Shown: one piece after another, positions 842 through 41,114 of the stretch
How the letters are laid out: each line of letters starts with the position of its first letter
Numbering within the stretch: position 1 is the first letter of the stretch
Sequence record: PP400786
Direction: 5' to 3' (one strand)
Length of the DNA stretch: 64,000 bases
Origin: Escherichia phage FL12
The notes under the pieces: model-generated
What the model saw: only the letters and a program-made list of their open reading frames with translations
Database searches by the model: none
What the model was told of the DNA's origin: nothing
Made by a program: the position numbers and the translations under genes

Positions 842-1338
842 AAAGTTTTAATAACCTCTACAATATCGTCTTGAGAAAGACCGTTAATTAAAATATGATG
901 TTCAGCCGGAGATTTAGAAATTTTAAAGCATGCCGCAACATCTTCTGCCATATCTGATGCACTACGATTTGGATTACTAATTCCAAGACGATGCTTTCCA
1001 GTCAAAGGATTAACGATGATATAGCATTTACAGCTATTGATATGAACATTAGGTTGAGTCTGATTAATGAATACTTCGCACTCATACTTAGCGAGTTGAT
1101 TTTCTAAAAAGACTTTCATCTCCTCAACCGCATCAGGAAGCATATCACGGGCTTGCTCAAGACGACGATTTCGATATTCTTTAATGGTCGTTTTCCGCTT
1201 GACTTGCTTAGCTAAATCTTTCTTAAGATCGGTGATATATCCAACTCGACGATTTCCTTTGAATACAGAAATCCCATCTGTAGTATCACCGTATGCTTCA
1301 ACGACCATTTCAGTAGTAATAAGCTGTAAATCCATCAT
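832..1338 (-). CDS. alc: Alc, inhibitor of host transcription on cytosine-containing DNA
   Basis: 168-aa ORF directly downstream of rnlA as in T4; size and sequence recalled as T4 Alc. Confidence 0.75.
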   Translation of the reverse strand: MMDLQLITTEMVVEAYGDTTDGISVFKGNRRVGYITDLKKDLAKQVKRKTTIKEYRNRRLEQARDMLPDAVEEMKVFLENQLAKYECEVFINQTQPNVHINSCKCYIIVNPLTGKHRLGISNPNRSASDMAEDVAACFKISKSPAEHHILINGLSQDDIVEVIKTLCN

Positions 1339-1399
1339 AAAGTCCTCATGTTATGTCAGTAAGACTACTATAACACAACATGAGGGACTTGTAAACAGC

Positions 1400-2987
<1,588 letters not shown>

Positions 2988-3014
2988 AATAAAATGGGCC
3001 TTGCGGCCCACTCC

Positions 3015-3516
3015 TTAAAAGTATTTTTTAAAACTCATCATAACTTTATCATCAACATCATTATCAATCTGTGCAACAAGGTAAGATGACAGTTCTACTT
3101 CTTGTGGCGCGGATTGAACATTATCAGAATTAAGATATTCACGAATCCAAGGATACGGATGTTTAACCGGAGCATCGGTAATTGGGCATGGAAGACCACA
3201 CTGTTTCATACGAGATACAGTTAAGTAATCAATAAAGCTCCACATGCTATTTGTATTTAATCCAGGAACATCACCATCTTTAAATAAATGAACTGCCCAA
3301 TCTTTTTCTTGGCGGTTAACTTCCATGAAAATATCAACTGCTTCTTGTTCACACTCTTGAGCAATTTTAACCCATTCATCACCATCAGTGCCGGATTGAA
3401 GTTGACGAATAATATATTGAGTGCCTTTAAGATGAAGCTGCTCATCACGAGCAATGAACTTCATAATCTTGGCATTACCTTCCATGATTTCCATGTTCTT
3501 ATGGAAGTTAAAGGTA
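3015..3516 (-). CDS. nrdB: ribonucleotide reductase beta subunit, exon 2
   Basis: ...TFNFHKNMEIMEGNAKIMKFIARDEQLHL... is the conserved R2 region that follows ...FYVSFAC; splice acceptor inferred. Confidence 0.7.
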
Positions 3517-4107
3517 CCGTTATGTTCGATTGAGCTCGCTAATTCTCAACCCGTTCTCTTATGAACTGCTACATATTACTATGCAGACCAGACTATATCA
3601 CAATCCCAGAGGGATTCTCCCCATTTCGAGTCGCTTGACCCTACGTCCGAAGACTAGTCGTTGAACCTTGCTTTGCAATTGTCGCCGTGCCATCGTTTAT
3701 ATGTTGATGGTGATAAATCTTTCTTATCACAATATGGACAATTCAATTGAATTCTATTTGGATTTAATTTACATCTGTCATTATGTTTTAGATAAAATCC
3801 AGGACCTTTACCAATGTGCCCGCAGAAATCACATGTGATTTCTTTTTGTGCAGGATGGGTCCCGTTCTTAACCATTTCTAATGTTTTTGCTGATGTTCTT
3901 TTCTTATGGTCCCATCAGAATCTTTAAGTAGGTCCGTCAGCATCTATCCAAATTTTTCTATAGTTCAATTGTGCATCCTCTTAAAAGTATAATCATATTA
4001 TACTAATTAAAGGTGCAAGCAAAACCTTGGCTGCTAGTTTTCCTATAAAGGACTTTCCAGCAATTAAAGGAGTTTTCGATAAACGTTACCGTTTAAAGGC
4101 GCATTTT
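3517..4107 (-). mobile_element. group I intron in nrdB (about 591 nt)
   Basis: Exon 1 frame stops right after ...FYVSFA; exon 2 resumes about 590 nt downstream; inferred junction GCGU|GUACC gives ...VSFACTFNF...; intron ends in G. Confidence 0.6.
3654..3875 (-). CDS. degenerate intron endonuclease ORF (I-TevIII-like, zinc finger)
   Basis: 73-aa ORF inside the intron with CDFCGH...CPYCDKK zinc-finger motifs; too short for a full HNH enzyme. Confidence 0.5.
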   Translation of the reverse strand: MVKNGTHPAQKEITCDFCGHIGKGPGFYLKHNDRCKLNPNRIQLNCPYCDKKDLSPSTYKRWHGDNCKARFND

Positions 4108-4783
4108 ACGCAAAAGATACATAAAAACGAATAGCTTCTAAGGCATTAATAACGTGCAAACAGAGGTAAAGAGATTTCATTAAAGCACGTTTAGCTTCGG
4201 CTTCTTGTTTAATAGCTCGGTTTAAACGAAAGTCGGCATCAGGAGATTCTTTAGCTAGTTCTACAAATTCTTTAGCATTTTCCCATTCACGGGTTTTAAC
4301 CAAGACATCATCATAATAACGTCCAATGGATTCAGCTCGTTTCATAATAGCTTCATCTAATACAATCTCATCAAATACCTTTGACGGATCAGTATAAAGA
4401 TTTCGCATGATATGAGTATATGAACGACTGTGAATAGTTTCACTAAAAGTCCATGTAGCAACCCATGTATCTAATGAAGGATCTGAAAGCAATGGCATAA
4501 GTACCGCAGATGGTGCACGACCTTGAATGCTATCAAGTAACGATTGATATTTAAGATTATTAGTAAAAATATTTTGTTGATACTGAGGAAGTTTATTAAA
4601 TTGAGTAGCATCCATCATCAAGTTAACTTCTTCAGGACGCCAGAAAAACGAGAGCTGACGTTCAATAAGTTCTTCAAATACCCTATGTCGTTGAATATCA
4701 TAACGTGCAATTCCAAGACCAGACCCAAAAAACATGGGTTCTGTTAAAACATCGACCTGTTTAGTATTAAAAACTGTACTCAT
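4108..4783 (-). CDS. nrdB: ribonucleotide reductase beta subunit, exon 1
   Basis: MSTVFNTKQVDVL... ending ...ALEAIRFYVSFA, the conserved R2 radical-site region. Confidence 0.8.
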
Positions 4784-6375
4784 TATTTTGTCCTGTAAAC
4801 TAAATTTCCACAGTCCCAGATTCTTCTAAGACCATTTGCATAACAATTTTCTACTTCAGTTATTGTATCATCATAATTTTTAAGCTTGTTTTTAAGCTTA
4901 TGTTTCATATAGCTTGAGCGGTGAAATACCTCTCCTTTATCGACGTACCAATAACACGGCTCAGAGATATGACTAAATTCCATGACAGAGTCATAAACAT
5001 TTGATAATGTACTGCACCATCTTCGATTGCCATAAGATAGACAATTAATTCCTTTTAATAATTTTGAGACTCCTCCTACAACACAAACCCCCAATTTTGA
5101 ACACATCCTTAAAAGTTCATCACCTGAGCTATATCTAGATTTACCGATAGAAATAATTTGAACTAACTCATTATTGTAATAAAGTCCTTTATACGTATGA
5201 GCTCCCGAGCAAAATCCTTGAAGATGATTCTTATTAATAAATTCTTTTGCCTCATCCTTATTAACAAAACGCGCTTTGCATTTTCGGGCTGGTATTCTTT
5301 CTGATAATCCTAATTTATGCTTTATAATGGATTTCCAGATCTCTCTTTTTGTATCATCAATCCATTCATTTTCGAAGATGTGAAGTAATTGAATTCCTTG
5401 TGCTTCACACATCTCTGTCTTCATCAAATGATAAGTTTCTTTAATTTTATCTGTTTCCTTTGACCCGCTAGAATGCCAATAAATTCCATCGTATTCTATA
5501 GCCAATTTTTTCTCAGGAATGTAAATATCTAATTCATACGGAGGAATAATTTTTCTAGTTTCTACGCAATCAAATCCTAGATCTAAAATGAATTGCTCTA
5601 TAGAACTTTGAGTATAATGAACGTCAATTAGTCCTTTGGATGAAAGAGCTCTATAAGCCGTCATCCGAGAACAATTTGCTAATTGTTGTAGTTCTTCTAT
5701 AGAAATTTTGTAATTGATTTTATCTAGTATATCATGATTAATATGACCGTTATTTTTAATAGATTTTCCTATAGATGAATATAACGATGCCTTATATTCT
5801 TCAGTCCAATTTAATTTGGTCTTCTTAGATTTTTCGCGAGATTTTTTAGAATGCAGAATATCAACTGATTTACCGTTTTCTATAACTTTTCTCGCTTCTT
5901 TCACACTTTCTAATTGTGAATTATGCGTTACCCCATATCGTTCAATTAAAGTTTTTCTATTTTTATTTCTTGAAATTTTTTGATGAGTTGTTCCATATTT
6001 TTCTAAAGAATTTTTGTGTTGAAGTTCAGACAAATATTTTTTATATTTTTCTTTTCCACCAAAATTTGTATCACGGCTTTGAGTTCTCTTATCCGCGAAA
6101 AATATCCCTGCGCAGGATTTACTACATGTTGCTGGAAATACACGTTTCTTTGCTGTTTTCAGAGAAATGAAATTTCCACAAACTGCACATTTTAGATCGT
6201 TAATGTCAATGCCTTCCATAATTTGGAACACATTGAGCTTAAAATCTATTCCATCAGTTAGAAGAGCTTTATCTTCTTCTGTTAGTCTAGATTTAAGTTT
6301 TTCTTCTCCAAATGGAAGAAACTTTCCGTTTTTGTATATATTATCAAACATAGCGTTATTCTTAGTTAACCACAT
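4783..6375 (-). CDS. large nuclease-like protein of unknown type (zinc ribbon, basic repeats, Vsr/DUF559-like motif)
   Basis: 530-aa ORF between nrdA and nrdB; CAVCGNF...CSKSCAG; repeated KYGTTHQ / RYGVTHNSQ; ...LAIEYDGIYWHS...GIQLLHIFENEW. Confidence 0.55.
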   Translation of the reverse strand: MWLTKNNAMFDNIYKNGKFLPFGEEKLKSRLTEEDKALLTDGIDFKLNVFQIMEGIDINDLKCAVCGNFISLKTAKKRVFPATCSKSCAGIFFADKRTQSRDTNFGGKEKYKKYLSELQHKNSLEKYGTTHQKISRNKNRKTLIERYGVTHNSQLESVKEARKVIENGKSVDILHSKKSREKSKKTKLNWTEEYKASLYSSIGKSIKNNGHINHDILDKINYKISIEELQQLANCSRMTAYRALSSKGLIDVHYTQSSIEQFILDLGFDCVETRKIIPPYELDIYIPEKKLAIEYDGIYWHSSGSKETDKIKETYHLMKTEMCEAQGIQLLHIFENEWIDDTKREIWKSIIKHKLGLSERIPARKCKARFVNKDEAKEFINKNHLQGFCSGAHTYKGLYYNNELVQIISIGKSRYSSGDELLRMCSKLGVCVVGGVSKLLKGINCLSYGNRRWCSTLSNVYDSVMEFSHISEPCYWYVDKGEVFHRSSYMKHKLKNKLKNYDDTITEVENCYANGLRRIWDCGNLVYRTK

Positions 6376-6391
6376 CCTTGTGGTAATTATA

Positions 6392-7381
6392 TCATAATTT
6401 ACAGGATGAACAATCTTCAGCTTTTGGAGTTTCTATTTCATAATCATCAGTACCAGAACCATCACGGGTATTATGATAATAGAAATTTTTAATGCCATAA
6501 TACCATCCGTATAGCATGTCATCAATCATTATTGACATTGGAACCTTTCCTTTTGGAAAAATCTGCGGGTCATAATATGTATTCGCTGAAGCTGATTGAC
6601 ATACCCATTTCAGCATAATAGCTACCTGCGTAAGATAAGGTTTATTACCTTTCTTAGCTAATTTCCATGTATAGTCGTAAAGGTCTATGTTATGCTCAAT
6701 ATTGGGCACGACTTGATTAAAGGAGCCCTCTTTTGATTCTTTAACAGAGACTGGTCCACGTGGAGGCTCGATACCGTTTGTACTGTTAGAAACTTGGGAA
6801 GATGACTCACATGGCATAAGTGCTGATAATGTGCTATTACGGATGCCAAAGAGCTTAAGGTCTTCCCGCAGCGCCGACCAATCACAAACGTATTTTGGAG
6901 CTGCGATTTGGTCAATCTTTTTATTGTACCAGTCGATAGGTAATTCGCCTCGAGACCAACGAGTGTCTGAATAATATTCGCAAGGTCCTTTTTCTTTGGC
7001 GAGCTTAATGGATGCTTTAATGAGTCCATACTGTAATCTCTCAAATAGTTCATGTGTTAAATCGTTAGCATCTTCATAAGAAGCAAAGTTACTTGCCAGC
7101 CAAGCTGCATAGTTGGTAACACCTACACCAAGATTTCGACGCTTTTTAGCTTTTTCTGCTTCAGGAACTGGATATCCTTGGTAATCCAAAAGATTATCAA
7201 GAGCACGAACTTGAACTTCTGCCAATTCATTAATTTTATCTTGGTCTTGCCAGTCAAAATTATCCAGTACGAATGCGCTAAGGGTACAAAGCCCCACTTC
7301 TCCCTTGTTTTCAATAACTTCTATTGTAGTATACTCATCATCTTCGTAAAATTCATCTACAAATTCATAATCAATATTCAT
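6392..7381 (-). CDS. nrdA: ribonucleotide reductase alpha subunit, C-terminal fragment
   Basis: ...GLCTLSAF...LSALMPCESSSQ...NTRDGSG...CSSCKL, matching the C-terminal third of class Ia R1. Confidence 0.85.
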   Translation of the reverse strand: MNIDYEFVDEFYEDDEYTTIEVIENKGEVGLCTLSAFVLDNFDWQDQDKINELAEVQVRALDNLLDYQGYPVPEAEKAKKRRNLGVGVTNYAAWLASNFASYEDANDLTHELFERLQYGLIKASIKLAKEKGPCEYYSDTRWSRGELPIDWYNKKIDQIAAPKYVCDWSALREDLKLFGIRNSTLSALMPCESSSQVSNSTNGIEPPRGPVSVKESKEGSFNQVVPNIEHNIDLYDYTWKLAKKGNKPYLTQVAIMLKWVCQSASANTYYDPQIFPKGKVPMSIMIDDMLYGWYYGIKNFYYHNTRDGSGTDDYEIETPKAEDCSSCKL

Positions 7382-8081
7382 TTAATTCTTTTACCTTTTT
7401 TCTAGTAATTCCTAAAGCTTTAGATGCTCGATGTATTGATTGATATTCTATACCGTTTATTTTTACAGCAATTAAGTTATGGGGTTTTAATCCCTTTGGA
7501 TGAGGTTTACTGACGAAAACTAAATTATCAAGCTCTGAAATCTTATCCAATTTCTTACACTTAAATCCTTTGTGATGCGACCGTTTACCTTTACAAACGG
7601 CTGACATTGCAGATGGATTTAAATTATGCTCTTTACAAAATTCGTTAAGACCTCGATGAATTTCCTCATGACCATCAGGAAATGTAAACACCCAAGATGT
7701 TTGAAGTCGAGATTTAACTTCTGGAGACATAGGAATACCTTTGTTCCAAGCTGGTTTGCCTTTATTATTTTCAGATACAGAAATAGCCAATTTTCTTCTA
7801 AGCCACCCATGGCGTTTATTGGTGTTCTTTCGTTCAATATTATCTTTAGAATAAACACACATCATATTAGCGGCAAATATCAATTTATGATTATTTGGAT
7901 ATATCTTTACTAATAATTGATGAGCTATGTAATGCTCTTCTGGCGTCAAATCTACCAGGTTTTCCTTTGTATCAGAACCACCAATACACAGAGGTATAAT
8001 ATGGTGTGATTCGGTATAGCAATCTAATTTTCTATTCTTAGCTTTAGAAATAAGGTTATTGTAAATTTTAAAATAATCCAT
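7371..8081 (-). CDS. HNH homing endonuclease inserted within nrdA
   Basis: 236-aa ORF with ESHHIIPLCIGGSDTKENLVDLTPEEHYIAH motif; stop overlaps the start region of the downstream nrdA fragment. Confidence 0.8.
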   Translation of the reverse strand: MDYFKIYNNLISKAKNRKLDCYTESHHIIPLCIGGSDTKENLVDLTPEEHYIAHQLLVKIYPNNHKLIFAANMMCVYSKDNIERKNTNKRHGWLRRKLAISVSENNKGKPAWNKGIPMSPEVKSRLQTSWVFTFPDGHEEIHRGLNEFCKEHNLNPSAMSAVCKGKRSHHKGFKCKKLDKISELDNLVFVSKPHPKGLKPHNLIAVKINGIEYQSIHRASKALGITRKKVKELNEY

Positions 8082-8126
8082 AACTTTTCCTCTTGTTATG
8101 GATTATTTATTAACGGTCTGTGTACT

Positions 8127-9560
8127 TTATTTGCTTTGAATTATACCGTCAGGATTAGCTTCATAAAACTTAGCTACATCCGACTTCTTAATTTTGATTA
8201 AACGGGTTTGTTGGCTATTCACATCATTTGTTGGAATAGCAATTTCACAACACAAGTTACTCTGACGAATAGGCGCCTTTTCGCGAATAAACGGAGTGTA
8301 GTTATTCGTATTATCAATGAACTGTACATAAATCCTTGCTGTTCCTGAACGTTCAGTCATGAGCAATTCAAATAGTTCACGGGCTTTAATACGCTTTTTA
8401 CGAATATTAGGGTCTTTTTCTGCTGCTTCGTATAATTCACGGAAACGGTCTTGGTCTTTAAAATAAGAATAATAAAGCTCGCCACCCATTTCATGTGGAC
8501 TGAACAAAGTAATGTAATCGTTCTTTCCAAAACGTTCCATCATCAAATCATTCAGCTGAACACCATAATCCATATGACGAATGCGGTTTTCTTCTACGCC
8601 TTTGTTATTTTTCAAAACGAGAAGATTTTCAACTTCCAAATGCCAAATAGGATAATAAGCAGTAGCAGCGCCGCCACGAATTCCACCCTGTGAACATGAT
8701 TTAACTGCAGTCTGAAAATGTTTCCAAAAAGGAATAACACCAGTATGGCGTACTTCACCCATGCCAATCTTAGAACCTTCGGCACGAATCATACCAACGT
8801 TAATACCAATTCCAGCGCGTTTAGAGATATATTCAACAATTGAAGCGGAAGCCTTATTGATAGACTTCAATGAATCTCCTGCCTCAATAACAACACATGA
8901 ACTAAACTGTCGAGTAGGAGTACGACAACCAGCCATAATAGGAGTTGGCAGTGAAATTTGTCGGGTTGATACTGCTTCATAAAAACGAATAACGTGTTTT
9001 AGTCTATCAACAGGTTCATCTTGATGCAGTGCCATTCCAATAGTCATAAATGCAAACTGTGGAGTTTCATAAATTTGACCAGTGGTTTTATCTTTAACTA
9101 GATATTTTTCTTTTAATTGCATCGCCCCGGAATAAGTAAATTCCATATCCCGCTCATGCTTAATTTTTGATTCTAAAAATGTAATTTCTTCTGCTGAATA
9201 TTTTGACAATAATTCAGGGTCGTATTTACCTTCATTTACACAGTAAGAAATATGGTCAATAAATGAACGTGGTTCATACTGCCCATAAACATGCTTACGA
9301 AGAGCGAACATTAGACAACGTGCAGCTACATATTGATAATCAGGCTCTTCAACCGAAATAGAATTCGCAGCGGCCTTAATGACAATAGTCTGAATATCAT
9401 CAGTTGTCATTCCATCACGGAGATAAGATTTAATATTTTCATATAATTCATAAGGATCTACTGATGTTCCTTCAGCTGCCCAAGATAAAACTTTAATAAT
9501 TTTTTGTGGGTCAAAGCTCTGAGAAACACCACTACTTTTGATAACATTAATTAATTGCAT
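8127..9560 (-). CDS. nrdA: ribonucleotide reductase alpha subunit, N-terminal fragment
   Basis: ATP-cone N-terminus; ...MAGCRTPTRQFSSCVVIE... and ...SNLCCEIAIPTNDVN then 26 non-conserved residues and stop. Confidence 0.85.
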   Translation of the reverse strand: MQLINVIKSSGVSQSFDPQKIIKVLSWAAEGTSVDPYELYENIKSYLRDGMTTDDIQTIVIKAAANSISVEEPDYQYVAARCLMFALRKHVYGQYEPRSFIDHISYCVNEGKYDPELLSKYSAEEITFLESKIKHERDMEFTYSGAMQLKEKYLVKDKTTGQIYETPQFAFMTIGMALHQDEPVDRLKHVIRFYEAVSTRQISLPTPIMAGCRTPTRQFSSCVVIEAGDSLKSINKASASIVEYISKRAGIGINVGMIRAEGSKIGMGEVRHTGVIPFWKHFQTAVKSCSQGGIRGGAATAYYPIWHLEVENLLVLKNNKGVEENRIRHMDYGVQLNDLMMERFGKNDYITLFSPHEMGGELYYSYFKDQDRFRELYEAAEKDPNIRKKRIKARELFELLMTERSGTARIYVQFIDNTNNYTPFIREKAPIRQSNLCCEIAIPTNDVNSQQTRLIKIKKSDVAKFYEANPDGIIQSK

Positions 9561-37417: not shown

Positions 37418-37621
37418 TTAATTCATATTACGCTTAATAACTTCGGCAACTTCTAGTAGTTCATCTTTAGTTGCGGTGTCGGATTGAATTTTATCTCTAA
37501 TATCCTTAAAGCGGTTTTTAAATTCTTCGGCTTCTCCCATATCGAAAAAGCGTTGAATGATTCTATATTCTCGATGAACTGCTTTATCAAAAAGTTCTAA
37601 ATTTACTTTATATGATTTCAT
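37418..37621 (-). CDS. hypothetical protein (rIIA.1 position)
   Basis: 67-aa ORF preceded by an early promoter. Confidence 0.5.
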
Positions 37622-37646
37622 TTCAATATCCTCATTTGCCCAATTA

Positions 37647-37677
37647 ATTATACCACATCCTTGTGGTAAAGTAAACT
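37647..37677 (-). promoter_or_regulatory. early promoter
   Basis: Minus strand GTTTAC, 18 nt, TATAAT. Confidence 0.5.
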
Positions 37678-37771
37678 ACTGGCTCATCCATTCTTTACGA
37701 AGGTCAGGATTAAATGGGACTGCACGAGATGGGATAAACATAACTTTCATAATTAAGCCTTATTAAAATTA

Positions 37772-37789
37772 AAACGAAGCTCCCGAAGG
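37772..37789 (-). terminator. candidate terminator after the HNH gene
   Basis: Hairpin AAGCUCC-UUCG-GGAGCUU followed by a U-rich run. Confidence 0.4.
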
Positions 37790-37792
37790 AGC

Positions 37793-38605
37793 TTAGGACA
37801 TCCAACACATTTTATAACCTTTGCAGGTTCTGTTAGGATTATTTAATGCTTTCAATATATTAGAAGACCCTATATCTAAATACTCCCTTAATTCATAAAG
37901 ATAGTTAAAATCAACAGTTTCACCTGTTTTTACACTTGTGATTCTTATAGGCCTTCTTTCATATTTAGATTTATACAACTCTCTAGTCTTAGCTTTAGTT
38001 TCTTCTGACCTAGGAGTGTATGGTTTAAATCCTTTTGTTTTAAATGTTTCCATTCTTGATTTAGTTATTTTATCCTGGTGTTCTTTTGTTTTTACAGGTG
38101 CTTTTCGCCCATTCTCCCAAGATAACTTGTTGGCCTGTATTATTTTATCTATTGCTTCTTGCGTATGAGTTTTACCATAAAATGGATTTAATTCGCCTAT
38201 ACGTTGTGAAGCAATATGTGACATTAATTCTCTTGTTGCTTTAGTATGTTTTTTACCTTTAAATGGGTTGCCATTTTTAGCAATCCATTCTTTCATAAAT
38301 CTAGAGTGCTCTTTAGAGAATTCTTGTTTAAGCCAATCATAATCTCTAGAATTTCTAGCTCCCATGTAAAAAGCTCTAATAGCCATAAGCATAGAACGGT
38401 TCTTATGAATTTTATAAAGCAATAAATGGGCGATAAAATGCTCTCTAGGGGTCATTTTAACTAGATTTGATTTAGCATTACTCCCGCCCATAGATTTAGG
38501 CAAAATATGGTGAGTTTCAGTATAATTAGGAATAGTGCTGCGGTTTTTAGCCGCAGCGATAAGTTTATCATAAATTTTACGATAATTCATTATCGTAGCA
38601 TCCAA
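37793..38605 (-). CDS. free-standing HNH homing endonuclease with NUMOD-like repeats
   Basis: 270-aa ORF; ETHHILPKSMGGSNAKSNLVKMTPREHFIAH; repeats NPFKGKKHT and NPFYGKTHT; 5' end overlaps gene 39 3' end by 16 nt. Confidence 0.8.
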   Translation of the reverse strand: MDATIMNYRKIYDKLIAAAKNRSTIPNYTETHHILPKSMGGSNAKSNLVKMTPREHFIAHLLLYKIHKNRSMLMAIRAFYMGARNSRDYDWLKQEFSKEHSRFMKEWIAKNGNPFKGKKHTKATRELMSHIASQRIGELNPFYGKTHTQEAIDKIIQANKLSWENGRKAPVKTKEHQDKITKSRMETFKTKGFKPYTPRSEETKAKTRELYKSKYERRPIRITSVKTGETVDFNYLYELREYLDIGSSNILKALNNPNRTCKGYKMCWMS

Positions 38606-40410
38606 TCTTTACGGAGTTCAGGGTCGTTACCCATGAGCATTTCAAATAGTTCTTTCCAATTTTCAGGAAGTTTAACTACGTCGTACACAGGGTTTTGAAT
38701 CATTTCTTTATATTCATCCCGCTGAAGTGAGCCCAATCCCTTGATGTATCGAATACTATGCTTAGGCAGTGTATCTTTAGCTTCTTCATACTCAGCTACA
38801 GTATAAAACCATTTTTGAGTTTTGCCAATTTGTGCAATAATTACAGGCGTTTTAACAAAGCGAATACGTCCTTGTTCAAACAATTCAGGCCAATTACTAA
38901 AGAAAGCAAGCAAAGCCGGATAAATACTTCCAAGTCCGTCATGATCGGCATCGGTCATAATAGCAATATTATGATAATTCAAGTTTTCAGCTTTTTCACC
39001 GAGAACTAATCCAGTGATTGCGCAAATATCAAATAGTTCTTTGTTTTTAAGCATATCTGCATAAGACATACCCCAACTGTTGAGAACTTTACCACGCAAT
39101 GGATAACCACCGTGAAGTTCTTTATCACGAACATCAATAAGATATCCGATAGCAGAATCACCCTCAGTCAAGAAAAGAGTAGTGTCAGCATCTTTACCAC
39201 AAAGATTCGCTTTGATATGTTTATGAACCTTAGCTTTAGAAGCCTTTTTAGCTGCCTTTGTTTCTGCTGCTTTTTCTGCCGCCAATTTACGAGCTAGTGC
39301 AGCTTCAATAATCGGCATTAAAATTGCTTCATTATTCAAAATAGCACGTGAAATCTTTTTAGCATCAAGTTGAATATGACTACGGATTTCACCAAATGGA
39401 GAAGTCAAACGCTCTTTAGTTTGAGAATCAAATCGCATGTTTTTCATATCACGAACAAACATAACGATAGTCAAACATTCTTTGACACGCGCTTTAGTTA
39501 CATCAATTTTGAACTTGCGTTTGATTTGTGGAATAAGGTCTTCACAAATATCATCCATAACACAGTCAATGTGATGGCCACCATTCTTAGTATGAATGTT
39601 ATTCACATAAGTTAATTGACGAAAACCATCCGGTGAACGACCAACCGCAATAGAACAGTTTTCTTGTTCTTGAACGATAGCATGCTCATCATACTGCCGT
39701 GCATATTTCTTAAAATTGCCCTGAACCTTTTTACCATTAAAGGTAAATTGAATATCAGGATAAACAACAGCAAGTGTCTGGAGACGATCCAGTGTAATGT
39801 CAAGATAAACCTGAGACAGCTCATTAGTTTCAAATGACATAAAATCAGGAATGAAAGTAACGCGAGTTCCTTTCCATTTTCCAGGAATATCTTCCCATGA
39901 TTTATTTTCCATGCCGTTTGAACAACGAACTACAATATTATTTTGACCATCGCCAGTTTCACCAACAAACATCACAGAAAAAATGTTTGTCAAACTAGAA
40001 CCAACACCATTCATACCACCGGTGACACGTTCTTTATCATCACCAAAGTTACCACCTGCTTTTGGAATAGTCCATGCAGCAACAGGACCAGGAATTTCTT
40101 CACCGGTAGGTGTTTTAACCATCGCTTGTGGAATACCACGACCGTTATCTTCAACTGTTACTTGATTGTTTTTAATAGTAACATTAATTTTATTTGCGAA
40201 TTTAAACTTAGTACGAATACCTTCATCTACTGAGTTATCGATAATTTCATCAATAAGCTTAACAAGACCAGGTACATACTGAACACTTTCCCATTTACCA
40301 AACAGAAAGCGCTCATGCATTTCATTAGCTGAAGAGCCAATGTACATGCCGCTACGCTTTTTGATATGTTCAATATCGCTCAGAATTTTAATTTCATTCT
40401 TAATCATCAC
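38590..40410 (-). CDS. 39: DNA topoisomerase II large subunit, uninterrupted (T4 39 plus 60 equivalent)
   Basis: 606-aa ORF with GHKL ATPase N-terminus and Toprim C-terminus (...IAIMTDADHDGLGSIYP...) in one frame. Confidence 0.9.
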   Translation of the reverse strand: MMIKNEIKILSDIEHIKKRSGMYIGSSANEMHERFLFGKWESVQYVPGLVKLIDEIIDNSVDEGIRTKFKFANKINVTIKNNQVTVEDNGRGIPQAMVKTPTGEEIPGPVAAWTIPKAGGNFGDDKERVTGGMNGVGSSLTNIFSVMFVGETGDGQNNIVVRCSNGMENKSWEDIPGKWKGTRVTFIPDFMSFETNELSQVYLDITLDRLQTLAVVYPDIQFTFNGKKVQGNFKKYARQYDEHAIVQEQENCSIAVGRSPDGFRQLTYVNNIHTKNGGHHIDCVMDDICEDLIPQIKRKFKIDVTKARVKECLTIVMFVRDMKNMRFDSQTKERLTSPFGEIRSHIQLDAKKISRAILNNEAILMPIIEAALARKLAAEKAAETKAAKKASKAKVHKHIKANLCGKDADTTLFLTEGDSAIGYLIDVRDKELHGGYPLRGKVLNSWGMSYADMLKNKELFDICAITGLVLGEKAENLNYHNIAIMTDADHDGLGSIYPALLAFFSNWPELFEQGRIRFVKTPVIIAQIGKTQKWFYTVAEYEEAKDTLPKHSIRYIKGLGSLQRDEYKEMIQNPVYDVVKLPENWKELFEMLMGNDPELRKDWMLR

Positions 40411-40476: not shown

Positions 40477-40746
40477 TTATTTAAAACGAATAGTCGAATC
40501 CTTGAAGAATAGTCCAGAACATACTGTTCCTTCTACTTTCTGCCCGGTAGGTCCAATAGCACGAAATCCAGTATGCTGGAAATCATTTTCAGAGCAACCG
40601 AACCAATTATATCCAGTGATTTCAATATTAGTAAAACCACTTGAAGACAAAACTTTGGTTGCATTATCAGCATCAGTACATCCTATTAAAGACACTGCTA
40701 ATACTAATGCTGCAATAGAACGATTAATATATTTCATAATTTTCAC
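40477..40746 (-). CDS. putative lipoprotein
   Basis: 89-aa ORF; signal peptide with lipobox LIGC. Confidence 0.5.
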   Translation of the reverse strand: MKIMKYINRSIAALVLAVSLIGCTDADNATKVLSSSGFTNIEITGYNWFGCSENDFQHTGFRAIGPTGQKVEGTVCSGLFFKDSTIRFK

Positions 40747-41114
40747 TTAAATTTAATGGCTTGAAGGAGACTAATAACTCTCAAGCGACTTCTTTCATCT
40801 TTAACTGTAAAAGAAAGAGGGTCACCAGACTTCATAGTAATAGTGCATTCAAAATCAAAATCTTCAGGAACTTCTTCGAAGAAGTCAAATTCTTCATCAT
40901 AAATTAGAACATTACTCTGAAAACTGTGAAGAATTTTTCCATCATTTCCAGATGCTGTACTAATCATTGTAACATTATTACCTTTCATATCTTCAACGAT
41001 AAATTCGCTTGTAGATATTACAGCATTAATAGAACCATTCCTATAAATAGCAGACATTAGATATTTCTTTTCTTCGCCTTCGCGAATACGATATTTCTTA
41101 CCGATTTTAAACAT
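40743..41114 (-). CDS. hypothetical protein
   Basis: 123-aa ORF. Confidence 0.5.
   Translation of the reverse strand: MFKIGKKYRIREGEEKKYLMSAIYRNGSINAVISTSEFIVEDMKGNNVTMISTASGNDGKILHSFQSNVLIYDEEFDFFEEVPEDFDFECTITMKSGDPLSFTVKDERSRLRVISLLQAIKFK

Follow-up and report, generated by a model that had tools for sequence, protein, structure and literature searches.

A homing endonuclease gene at the 3' end of an unsplit topoisomerase gene in Escherichia phage FL12, and its probable import from a Mosigvirus

In phage T4, the large subunit of the DNA topoisomerase is encoded by gene 39 and, separately, by gene 60 with its translational bypass, and mobA lies between the two. How, then, is a T4-like phage to be read in which the gene is whole and an endonuclease gene sits at its end? 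This is the arrangement found in a 64,000-nt stretch of Escherichia phage FL12 (record PP400786; hereafter the window), where gene 39 is followed by a homing endonuclease gene (HEG) of the HNH type, both open reading frames (ORFs) being on the minus strand. An earlier note on this DNA had proposed that the pair may be the configuration that precedes a T4-like split, or else a different HEG occupying the same hotspot. Comparison with related phages points to a history in which the HEG, together with the last part of gene 39, was imported from a phage of the genus Mosigvirus. Taking homing and import as one joint explanation, we consider it likely that the HEG is a free-standing, promoter-less HNH member of the Mob family, specialised on the 3' end of the topoisomerase gene.

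The gene 39 ORF (38590..40410) encodes 606 aa if read from a GTG at 40410. Public annotations begin it at the ATG at 40407 instead, which gives 605 aa, and gene 39 nucleotides are counted from this ATG below. Its product carries IAIMTDADHDGLGSIYP, has matches to the HATPase_c, DNA_gyraseB, Toprim and TOPRIM_C domains, and matches PHROG 543 (“DNA topoisomerase II large subunit”) with E=3.6e-294. The gene is colinear with the unsplit gene 39 of relatives, is devoid of the 50-nt bypass insert and, compared with these relatives, has no insertion at ..TDADHDG/LGS... Domain matches and colinearity thus bear out the single ORF with ATPase domain and Toprim, and without bypass, that had been described at first reading. 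The unsplit gene is the usual state, found in hundreds of Tequatrovirus records, and the window phage is itself a Tequatrovirus, about 98% identical at the locus to Yersinia phage fPS-90 and Escherichia phage vB_EcoM_F1 (F1).

The HEG ORF (37793..38605) has 270 aa if begun at the first in-frame TTG and, as also described, contains NUMOD-like repeats (NUMOD3 in two stretches, E=5e-9; PHROG “homing endonuclease”, E=2.4e-56). The consensus N-terminus of the family is MNYxKxY, and annotations of the fPS-90, F1 and BYEP01 copies place the start at the ATG at 38590. This ATG is likely the start in the window as well, giving a protein of 265 aa (37793..38590) and a 1-nt TAATG stop/start overlap with gene 39 (38590..40407). 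The two genes do abut; the overlap of 16 nt that had been reported for them arises because longest-ORF calling takes the first TTG.

Gene 39 is a chimera. From nt 1 to 1446 (38962..40407), it is of the native Tequatrovirus type, with 97.9% identity to the HEG-less Tequatrovirus G8 (1419/1449) and 74.6% to the Mosigvirus phi25-307. From nt 1455 to the stop at nt 1818 (38590..38953), identity is 76.7% to G8 and 99.2% to phi25-307 (358/361). The last Tequatrovirus-specific and the first Mosigvirus-specific bases place the left crossover at 38953..38962, in the Toprim-coding ATTATGAC. The imported part includes patch A', CTTCAGCGGGATGAATATAAAGAA (38704..38727), in which ..SL-QRDEYK-E replaces ..SL-EKSEYR-E immediately after the conserved block RYIKGLGSL and which is our candidate for the HEG target and immunity site. 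It also includes patch B' with the swapped gene end, MLMGNDPELRKDWMLR and stop (38590..38640), for which the Mosigvirus form is ..GDDSELRKEWMS and the Tequatrovirus form ..GDNADLRKEWMSQ, each before the stop. The HEG itself is identical to the phi25-307 copy at 796/798 nt.

Mosigvirus sequence continues beyond the HEG. Between 37804 and 37702, the window is 99% identical to HEG-less Mosigviruses. This part spans the intrinsic terminator of the Mosigvirus gene 39 (GCTCCTTCGGGAGC and a T-run, 37767..37792, labelled terminator in fPS-90), now located 3' of the HEG, and the first 16 codons, MKVMFIPSRAVPFNPD (37702..37750), of a gene that in Mosigvirus encodes a 366-aa putative hydroxymethylcytosine (hmC)-arabinosyltransferase. 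The fragment ends in a join at CTGACC (37702..37707), a microhomology between JS09 (..TAATCCTGACCGTG..) and G8 (..TAATGCTGACCTTCG..). It is followed by a 32-nt relic of the 3' end of the recipient gene 39 (37676..37707), which reads ..DLRKEWMSQ-stop and equals G8 gene nt 1787-1818. After the relic, native Tequatrovirus sequence is back, with 98.7% identity to G8 and T4 (37418..37675); it comprises a sigma-70-like promoter (37647-37675) and rIIA.1 (37418-37621; PF24210, E=1.4e-33).

These comparisons show that a Mosigvirus was the source of the window copy, which arrived in a block of about 1.25 kb (38953-37702). The block has a homologous crossover in gene 39 as its left boundary and an illegitimate join at the 6-nt microhomology as its right one. 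The direction, from Mosigvirus to Tequatrovirus, follows from the presence of the arabinosyltransferase fragment. The earlier picture of an intact target abutted by an intact endonuclease holds for the HNH core but not for gene 39, whose last ~360 nt were imported and whose terminal codons were replaced, the displaced original end persisting downstream of the HEG. The arabinosyltransferase start, with an AAGG ribosome site, is in frame with the relic gene 39 end, forming a chimeric 24-codon ORF (MKVMFIPSRAVPFNPDLRKEWMSQ and stop, 37676-37750) that is probably a meaningless by-product.

What was imported can be read in the donor genus, where insert junctions and empty sites were placed by anchored comparisons. 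In the HEG-less Mosigviruses JS09 and AlbertHofmann, gene 39 ends in ..GAATGGATG followed by TCCTAA, after which come the terminator hairpin and the 366-aa arabinosyltransferase gene. In HEG-bearing Mosigviruses (phi25-307 and 15 other phages), ..GATTGGATG is followed by an insert that begins with CTAGGATAATG, contains the HEG and ends with TGTTGGATG, and then by TCCTAA and the terminator. Hence, the element in Mosigvirus is an 800-nt insert in the last codons of gene 39, bounded by TGGATG direct repeats. NHEP36, which is HEG-less, is without exactly these 800 nt; relative to it, the insert occupies 37799..38598 of the window, with the repeats at 38599-38604 and 37799-37804.

The insert supplies gene 39 with a new end, ..DWMLG-stop (LR-stop in the window copy), and the HEG start codon overlaps the new stop. 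At the other end, the HEG ORF terminates on the old gene 39 codons W-M-S-stop, and the old gene 39 terminator is reused. The HEG is located neither in an intron nor in an in-frame intein: its ORF starts at the gene 39 stop in another frame, and gene 39 is contiguous, ending upstream of the HEG. Tequatroviruses and Mosigviruses alike either have the HEG or lack it cleanly, with defined junctions; it is free-standing at the boundary of a conserved gene.

Mosigvirus gene 39 alleles with and without the HEG are 98-100% identical outside two patches. Patch A (gene 39 nt ~1674-1704) changes from GLGSL-EKSEYR-E in HEG-less to GLGSL-QRDEYK-E in HEG-bearing phages, with 12 differences in 31 nt against a background of 1.6% (binomial P~2e-14). 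Patch B corresponds to the last ~45 nt, and its B' form, which abuts the insert, has 15 differences in 51 nt. In the 65 nt separating the patches, HEG-bearing and HEG-less Mosigviruses show 2 differences, and Tequatrovirus and Mosigvirus differ at about 10 sites.

The Tequatrovirus copies appear to go back to one event. From the HEG stop to rIIA.1, illegitimate junction included, 186-188 of 189 positions are identical in fPS-90, F1, BYEP01 and CJY920. The left crossovers vary, being located at nt ~1407-1416 in fPS-90, F1 and BYEP01, at nt 1446-1455 in the window and at nt ~1646-1652 in CJY920. All Tequatrovirus copies are thus seen, on comparison, to have one common right junction with differing left crossovers. 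Because an illegitimate join is unlikely to recur, this is most simply read as one founding event, after which the cassette moved repeatedly by homologous transfer into different Tequatrovirus backgrounds, as homing would yield. Exact scans of IMG/VR for patch A' and for the founder junction gave 0 matches each.

The position of the left crossovers deserves a remark of its own. In unsplit recipients (window 38953-39001, corresponding to nt 1407-1455; also at nt 1455-1464 in SP21535, a Tequatrovirus described below), they fall around the MobA insertion point at nt 1419. They are also near the MobA nick region, ~20 nt upstream of the bypass site at nt 1473. This clustering could be due to chance, to homology in the conserved Toprim stretch or to MobA-stimulated recombination.

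The encoded protein retains its catalytic residues. E25, H27, H28, N42, H51, H55 and L58 of the HNH core are invariant in a 50-sequence alignment and are all present in the window HEG, which argues against a catalytically dead protein, a possibility that had been raised for it. Six of seven extracted copies are intact; these six differ at four codons, three of them synonymously. The window HEG carries a private I226V, owing to which its exact protein was absent from the records on an exact-protein look-up. An AlphaFold model of the HEG product is confident, with a mean pLDDT (predicted local distance difference test) of 88.3. Its top PDB match in Foldseek is I-HmuI (1U3E; probability 1.00, E=6e-3), over 89 columns of the N-terminal HNH domain. 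I-HmuI was found by the fold search alone, a PDB sequence search returning only McrA (E=0.39). Like I-HmuI, an HNH nickase of Bacillus phage SPO1, the HEG product has an HNH fold in an extended multi-module build, with DNA-binding modules after the nuclease; I-HmuI differs in being intron-encoded, and identity is 18% over the 89 columns. The Mob enzymes studied, MobA and MobE, nick a single strand (PMC2988022; PMC2790892), and by analogy nicking is the default expectation for the window HEG.

No recognisable promoter was found in the cassette, whose start codon overlaps the gene 39 stop and whose HEG is followed by the Mosigvirus terminator. “Promoter-less cassettes” are a class of T4 HEGs (PMC2988022), and the HEG is probably expressed by read-through of gene 39 transcripts, with weak coupled translation. 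A 7/8 match to the late promoter, TATAAAGA at 38712, is created by patch A' and was not relied on. The window copy has a private G-to-C change at 38595, by which CTAGGATAATG becomes CTACGATAATG; the other 26 copies have G. As a consequence, gp39 ends in R in place of G, and the AGGA that precedes the HEG ATG is lost. The change also creates a perfect 8-bp hairpin over the start codon, TACGATAA-TGAA-TTATCGTA (38578-38597).

Where would such an enzyme act? MobE nicks a polymorphic patch beside a conserved block, and the polymorphisms have been proposed to protect mobE+ genomes (PMC2790892). Free-standing T4 HEGs cut away from their own gene, and some of the products inherit the resistant site without the HEG (PMC2988022). 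We propose that, in a mixed infection, the window enzyme would nick or cut a HEG-less gene 39 at or near the EKSEYR-coding patch beside KGLGSL, ~110 nt upstream of the insertion. Repair would copy the donor allele, so that the HEG would be inherited along with the resistant patch A' and the new gene end, and short repair tracts would give HEG-less, probably immune alleles such as those of JM17 and SP21535. The founding event from Mosigvirus to Tequatrovirus would have involved strand invasion in gene 39, copying past the HEG and microhomology annealing, and would have been followed by ordinary homing among Tequatroviruses.

Patch A', with its 12 differences in 31 nt, is a good candidate for the self-protecting sequence difference that the earlier note had sought. 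It is present with every HEG copy examined, and the shortest co-converted tract, that of CJY920, takes in patch A, beginning shortly upstream of it at nt ~1650. Because HEG-bearing genomes must be immune and the Mosigvirus alleles differ only there, the immunity site should be in patch A, in patch B or in the insert. The founder junction keeps recipient sequence from nt 1787, and therefore the break should be upstream of nt 1787. Patch A' is found without the HEG in nine records. In the Mosigvirus JM17, which has no HEG, A' alone is present; the left end of its tract lies within nt 1629-1674 and the right end within nt 1713-1761. In the Tequatrovirus SP21535, which likewise lacks the HEG, the gene end is native and tracts of Mosigvirus type lie at nt ~1464-1548 and ~1636-1731. 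Both look like repair events that fixed the resistant site short of the HEG, the alternative being recombinational loss of the HEG. Overall, the natural mosaics resemble co-conversion tracts, with a near-identical HEG in 75%-identical backgrounds, variable left junctions and one right junction. From these comparisons, we put the chance of a cut at patch A slightly above even; patch B or the insertion point takes a little less than half the weight given to patch A, and sites elsewhere share the remainder.

The resulting picture is close to that of T4 MobE, a free-standing HNH HEG in the nrdA-nrdB gap. MobE is a promoter-less cassette that relies on upstream transcription, as the window HEG probably does, and its target, in a neighbouring conserved gene and distant from the HEG, is a polymorphic patch by a conserved block, which matches the candidate patch A next to KGLGSL. 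MobE differs in its target gene and its C-terminal domain, and its nick was mapped experimentally whereas the window site is predicted from sequence. SegF, SegG and other free-standing T4 HEGs that perform intronless homing resemble the proposed scheme in that cleavage and insertion sites are apart and co-conversion tracts vary in length; they are GIY-YIG enzymes that make double-strand breaks, and the evidence for the window HEG consists of natural population mosaics.

The HEG lineage itself appears to be old and tied to the topoisomerase 3'-end position. Among GenBank phages, its C-terminal 183 aa are found in 27 phage records only, with at least 98.4% identity, and this query gave no orthologs of 60-80% identity; “orthologs” in that range suggested by another search turned out to be HNH-domain matches only. 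Metagenome assemblies contain three full-length relatives with 41-45% identity (P0002, P0003 and P0004), each directly after a 606-607-aa topoisomerase gene on a T4-like contig; the contexts of P0001 are ordinary Mosigvirus. As in the window, a relic of the gene 39 end lies downstream of the HEG in the lineage L014 (CTTCGTAAAGAGTGGATGAATCAATAG, translated as LRKEWMNQ-stop). Patch A departs from EKSEYR in all four HEG-bearing lineages (QRDEYK, QRSEYG, SQDEYG and TEDEYS). This deviation is no more than suggestive, the closest GenBank relative of L014 being only 78% identical. Six HEG-less Mosigviruses (LF82-4, TH12, TH58, phiEC1, OLB35 and CCU7) carry, together with the A'/B' allele, an identical 19-nt footprint at the insertion point, CTTGGTTAATTGATAGATG. 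The footprint looks like the insert's first 10 nt joined to its last 9, with two mismatches per part, and the ..LG-stop gene end is kept. These alleles either derive from an older, diverged HEG copy that was deleted or represent the pre-insertion allele.

The best surviving rival keeps the same homing model. Like an intron-type HEG, the enzyme would recognise or cleave gene 39 in patch B or at the point of insertion itself (nt ~1770-1812), and A' would be only a co-converted polymorphism of an older donor. B' abuts the insert and holds 15 differences in 51 nt, the insert physically interrupts the patch B sequence, and the Tequatrovirus founder junction is compatible with a cut at nt 1770-1786. 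Moreover, the distant lineages L014, L017 and L018 have their own patch A variants, as old divergence predicts. However, in JM17 and SP21535, which lack the HEG, A' is found next to a patch B of the sensitive type; a break at patch A accounts for this more readily. In addition, the 65 nt between the patches are near-identical in HEG-bearing and HEG-less Mosigviruses and therefore speak against wholesale replacement by a distant donor, and cutting at a distance from their own gene is typical of free-standing T4 HEGs. We thus hold cleavage at patch B or the insertion point to be possible, and rather doubtful.

A second rival dispenses with the endonuclease. The block would have entered Tequatrovirus by general recombination, without endonuclease action, and the ORF would be a decaying, vertically inherited relic. 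T4-like phages do recombine heavily, as the patchy mosaics of SP21535, OLB35 and BYEP01 illustrate; 2/27 HEG copies are frameshifted; and there is neither a demonstrable promoter nor a strong ribosome-binding site, the AGGA being lost in the window copy. A passive passenger is nevertheless hard to reconcile with a HEG that is identical at 796/798 nt across genera whose flanking genes are ~75% identical, or with at least three left crossovers joined to one illegitimate right junction, which imply that one cassette was transferred repeatedly. No catalytic residue is lost, and 6/7 extracted copies are intact, with one non-synonymous and three synonymous polymorphic codons, and three further lineages with 41-45% identity have been kept at the same position. 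Passive entry is thus improbable.

Several observations weigh against the preferred explanation by homing from a site at patch A. Patch A' is physically linked to the HEG, and its association is expected from linkage alone; immunity could instead be conferred by patch B' or by the insertion itself. SP21535, with its two-tract patchy mosaic, could be a recombinant that lost the HEG and not a hit-and-run repair product, and the six footprint Mosigviruses suggest that the A'B' allele may predate the HEG, without having evolved for immunity. The I-HmuI match is weak in E-value (6e-3) and extends over ~90 residues only. The two frameshifted copies, AV118 (extracted locus 311-1109; stop at aa 117) and ECO111 5-P (OR844765), carry 1-nt indels, which reflect either decay of the element or sequencing error. 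There is no T4 late promoter TATAAATA near the HEG, and the loss of AGGA makes expression in the window phage uncertain. The hairpin over the start codon was rejected as a conserved regulator sequestering the ribosome-binding site or start (z=-1.7, not significant), and the other 26 copies do not form it. Finally, cleavage, nicking, target site and immunity are all deduced from comparative sequence.

The comparison with the T4 MobA element answers the question raised at the outset. In T4, ..LVLGEKA (gene 39 nt 1419, window 38989) precedes the MobA element and ..TDADHDG (nt 1473) the 50-nt bypass. The window HEG is inserted after nt 1809 (window 38599), ~390 nt further downstream, at a point equivalent to the gap between gene 60 and rIIA.1 in T4. 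It is thus not in the T4 mobA slot, as had been supposed. When the HEG is aligned with the intact 272-aa MobA of CJY920, the HNH core shows 61% identity over the first 71 aa; past aa 71 there is no significant similarity and the remainder is unrelated. CJY920 (PQ349265; extracted locus 1190-4849) has a T4-type split 39, full-length MobA and gene 60 with bypass, plus the HEG after gene 60. The two elements are therefore independent and additive. T4 mobA itself is a pseudogene, consisting of a 48-aa fragment plus 60.1.

Both are Mob-family HNH genes resident in the topoisomerase large-subunit gene of T4-like phages, both carry their own diverged copy of adjoining target-gene sequence (“homR” in the case of MobA), and both have a sporadic, recent distribution. 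MobA elements always have CTE/NTE tails and bypass and are always inserted in the Toprim domain (Manning & Atkins, bioRxiv 10.1101/2022.08.31.505936). In contrast, the window HEG is in the last codons, outside the Toprim domain, next to an unsplit gene 39 without CTE/NTE tails or 50-nt bypass, and has an unrelated C-terminal domain with NUMOD3 repeats. By these comparisons, the window HEG is another member of the Mob family, distinct from MobA, that occupies a nearby site of the same gene, and it is no precursor of the T4 split; of the alternative “different HEG, same hotspot”, the different HEG and the shared gene stand and the shared site does not. The proposal that the T4-type 39/60 split with bypass descends from an intact gene 39 next to a HEG in the mobA slot, for which the shared gene and the closely related HNH cores would speak, is already contradicted by the separate insertion points, the unrelated and presumably DNA-binding C-terminal regions, the joint occurrence of both elements in CJY920 and the absence of all MobA hallmarks at the window HEG, and we give it almost no credence.

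Two further loci of the window may be mentioned. A second Mob-type HNH HEG (236 aa, 7371..8081, minus strand), 55% identical to the HNH core of the topoisomerase-associated HEG, is located between the halves of nrdA (locus 6392-9560, minus strand), a 477-aa N-part (8127..9560) and a 329-aa C-part (6392..7381). This split nrdA is a MobE-like arrangement as in Aeh1 and HY01 (compare sequence MobE_split_HY01). Such nrdA-splitting insertions resemble the element at gene 39 in that a Mob HEG is inside a coding sequence whose function is rescued by junction sequence supplied or tolerated. They differ in that nrdA is in two polypeptides, whereas gene 39 has only its last 1-2 codons replaced and the protein stays whole. 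Closer to the locus, a 123-aa ORF at 40743-41114 (minus strand), upstream of 39.1, is also found in G8 and BYEP01 (372-nt gene) and is absent from fPS-90 and F1, otherwise the nearest relatives; this is a further presence/absence polymorphism.

Automatic annotation has labelled the HEG ORF “homing endonuclease” or “NUMOD3 motif protein” in 27 records, from about 21 distinct phages, and the phiC120 genome paper merely lists it (PMC8022965). We found no account in the literature of its target, its junctions or its cross-genus transfer. Manning & Atkins (2022; bioRxiv 10.1101/2022.08.31.505936) named MobZ, MobY1 and MobZA at other loci, none at the topoisomerase 3' end. The HEG is thus an uncharacterized member of the Mob family. 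Going further, and only tentatively, the locus may record how a nicking HEG crossed a genus boundary, by KGLGSL-adjacent cleavage, strand invasion, copying into a donor-specific gene and 6-nt closure, which would have created a new self-contained homing cassette and immune, HEG-less “hit-and-run” alleles. The same speculation would include two Mob nickases, 230-390 nt apart, possibly driving topoisomerase mosaicism jointly.

No general principle is altered by these results; the element is ordinary in kind, and its history is unusually readable. The T4-like topoisomerase large-subunit gene, famed for MobA and the bypass, has a second, independent Mob-family endonuclease lineage dedicated to it, which spares its host gene more simply than MobA does, in that it exchanges the final codons and makes further use of the old stop and terminator. 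Public genomes hold an unusually complete set of states, namely sensitive, HEG-bearing, HEG-less with the resistant patch, footprint, frameshifted and cross-genus founder junction. This set leads to a specific, testable target prediction and gives an example of a free-standing HEG entering a genome without homology on one side. It should also help to explain mosaicism and marker exclusion among therapeutic T-even phages, and it offers a candidate new site-specific nickase.

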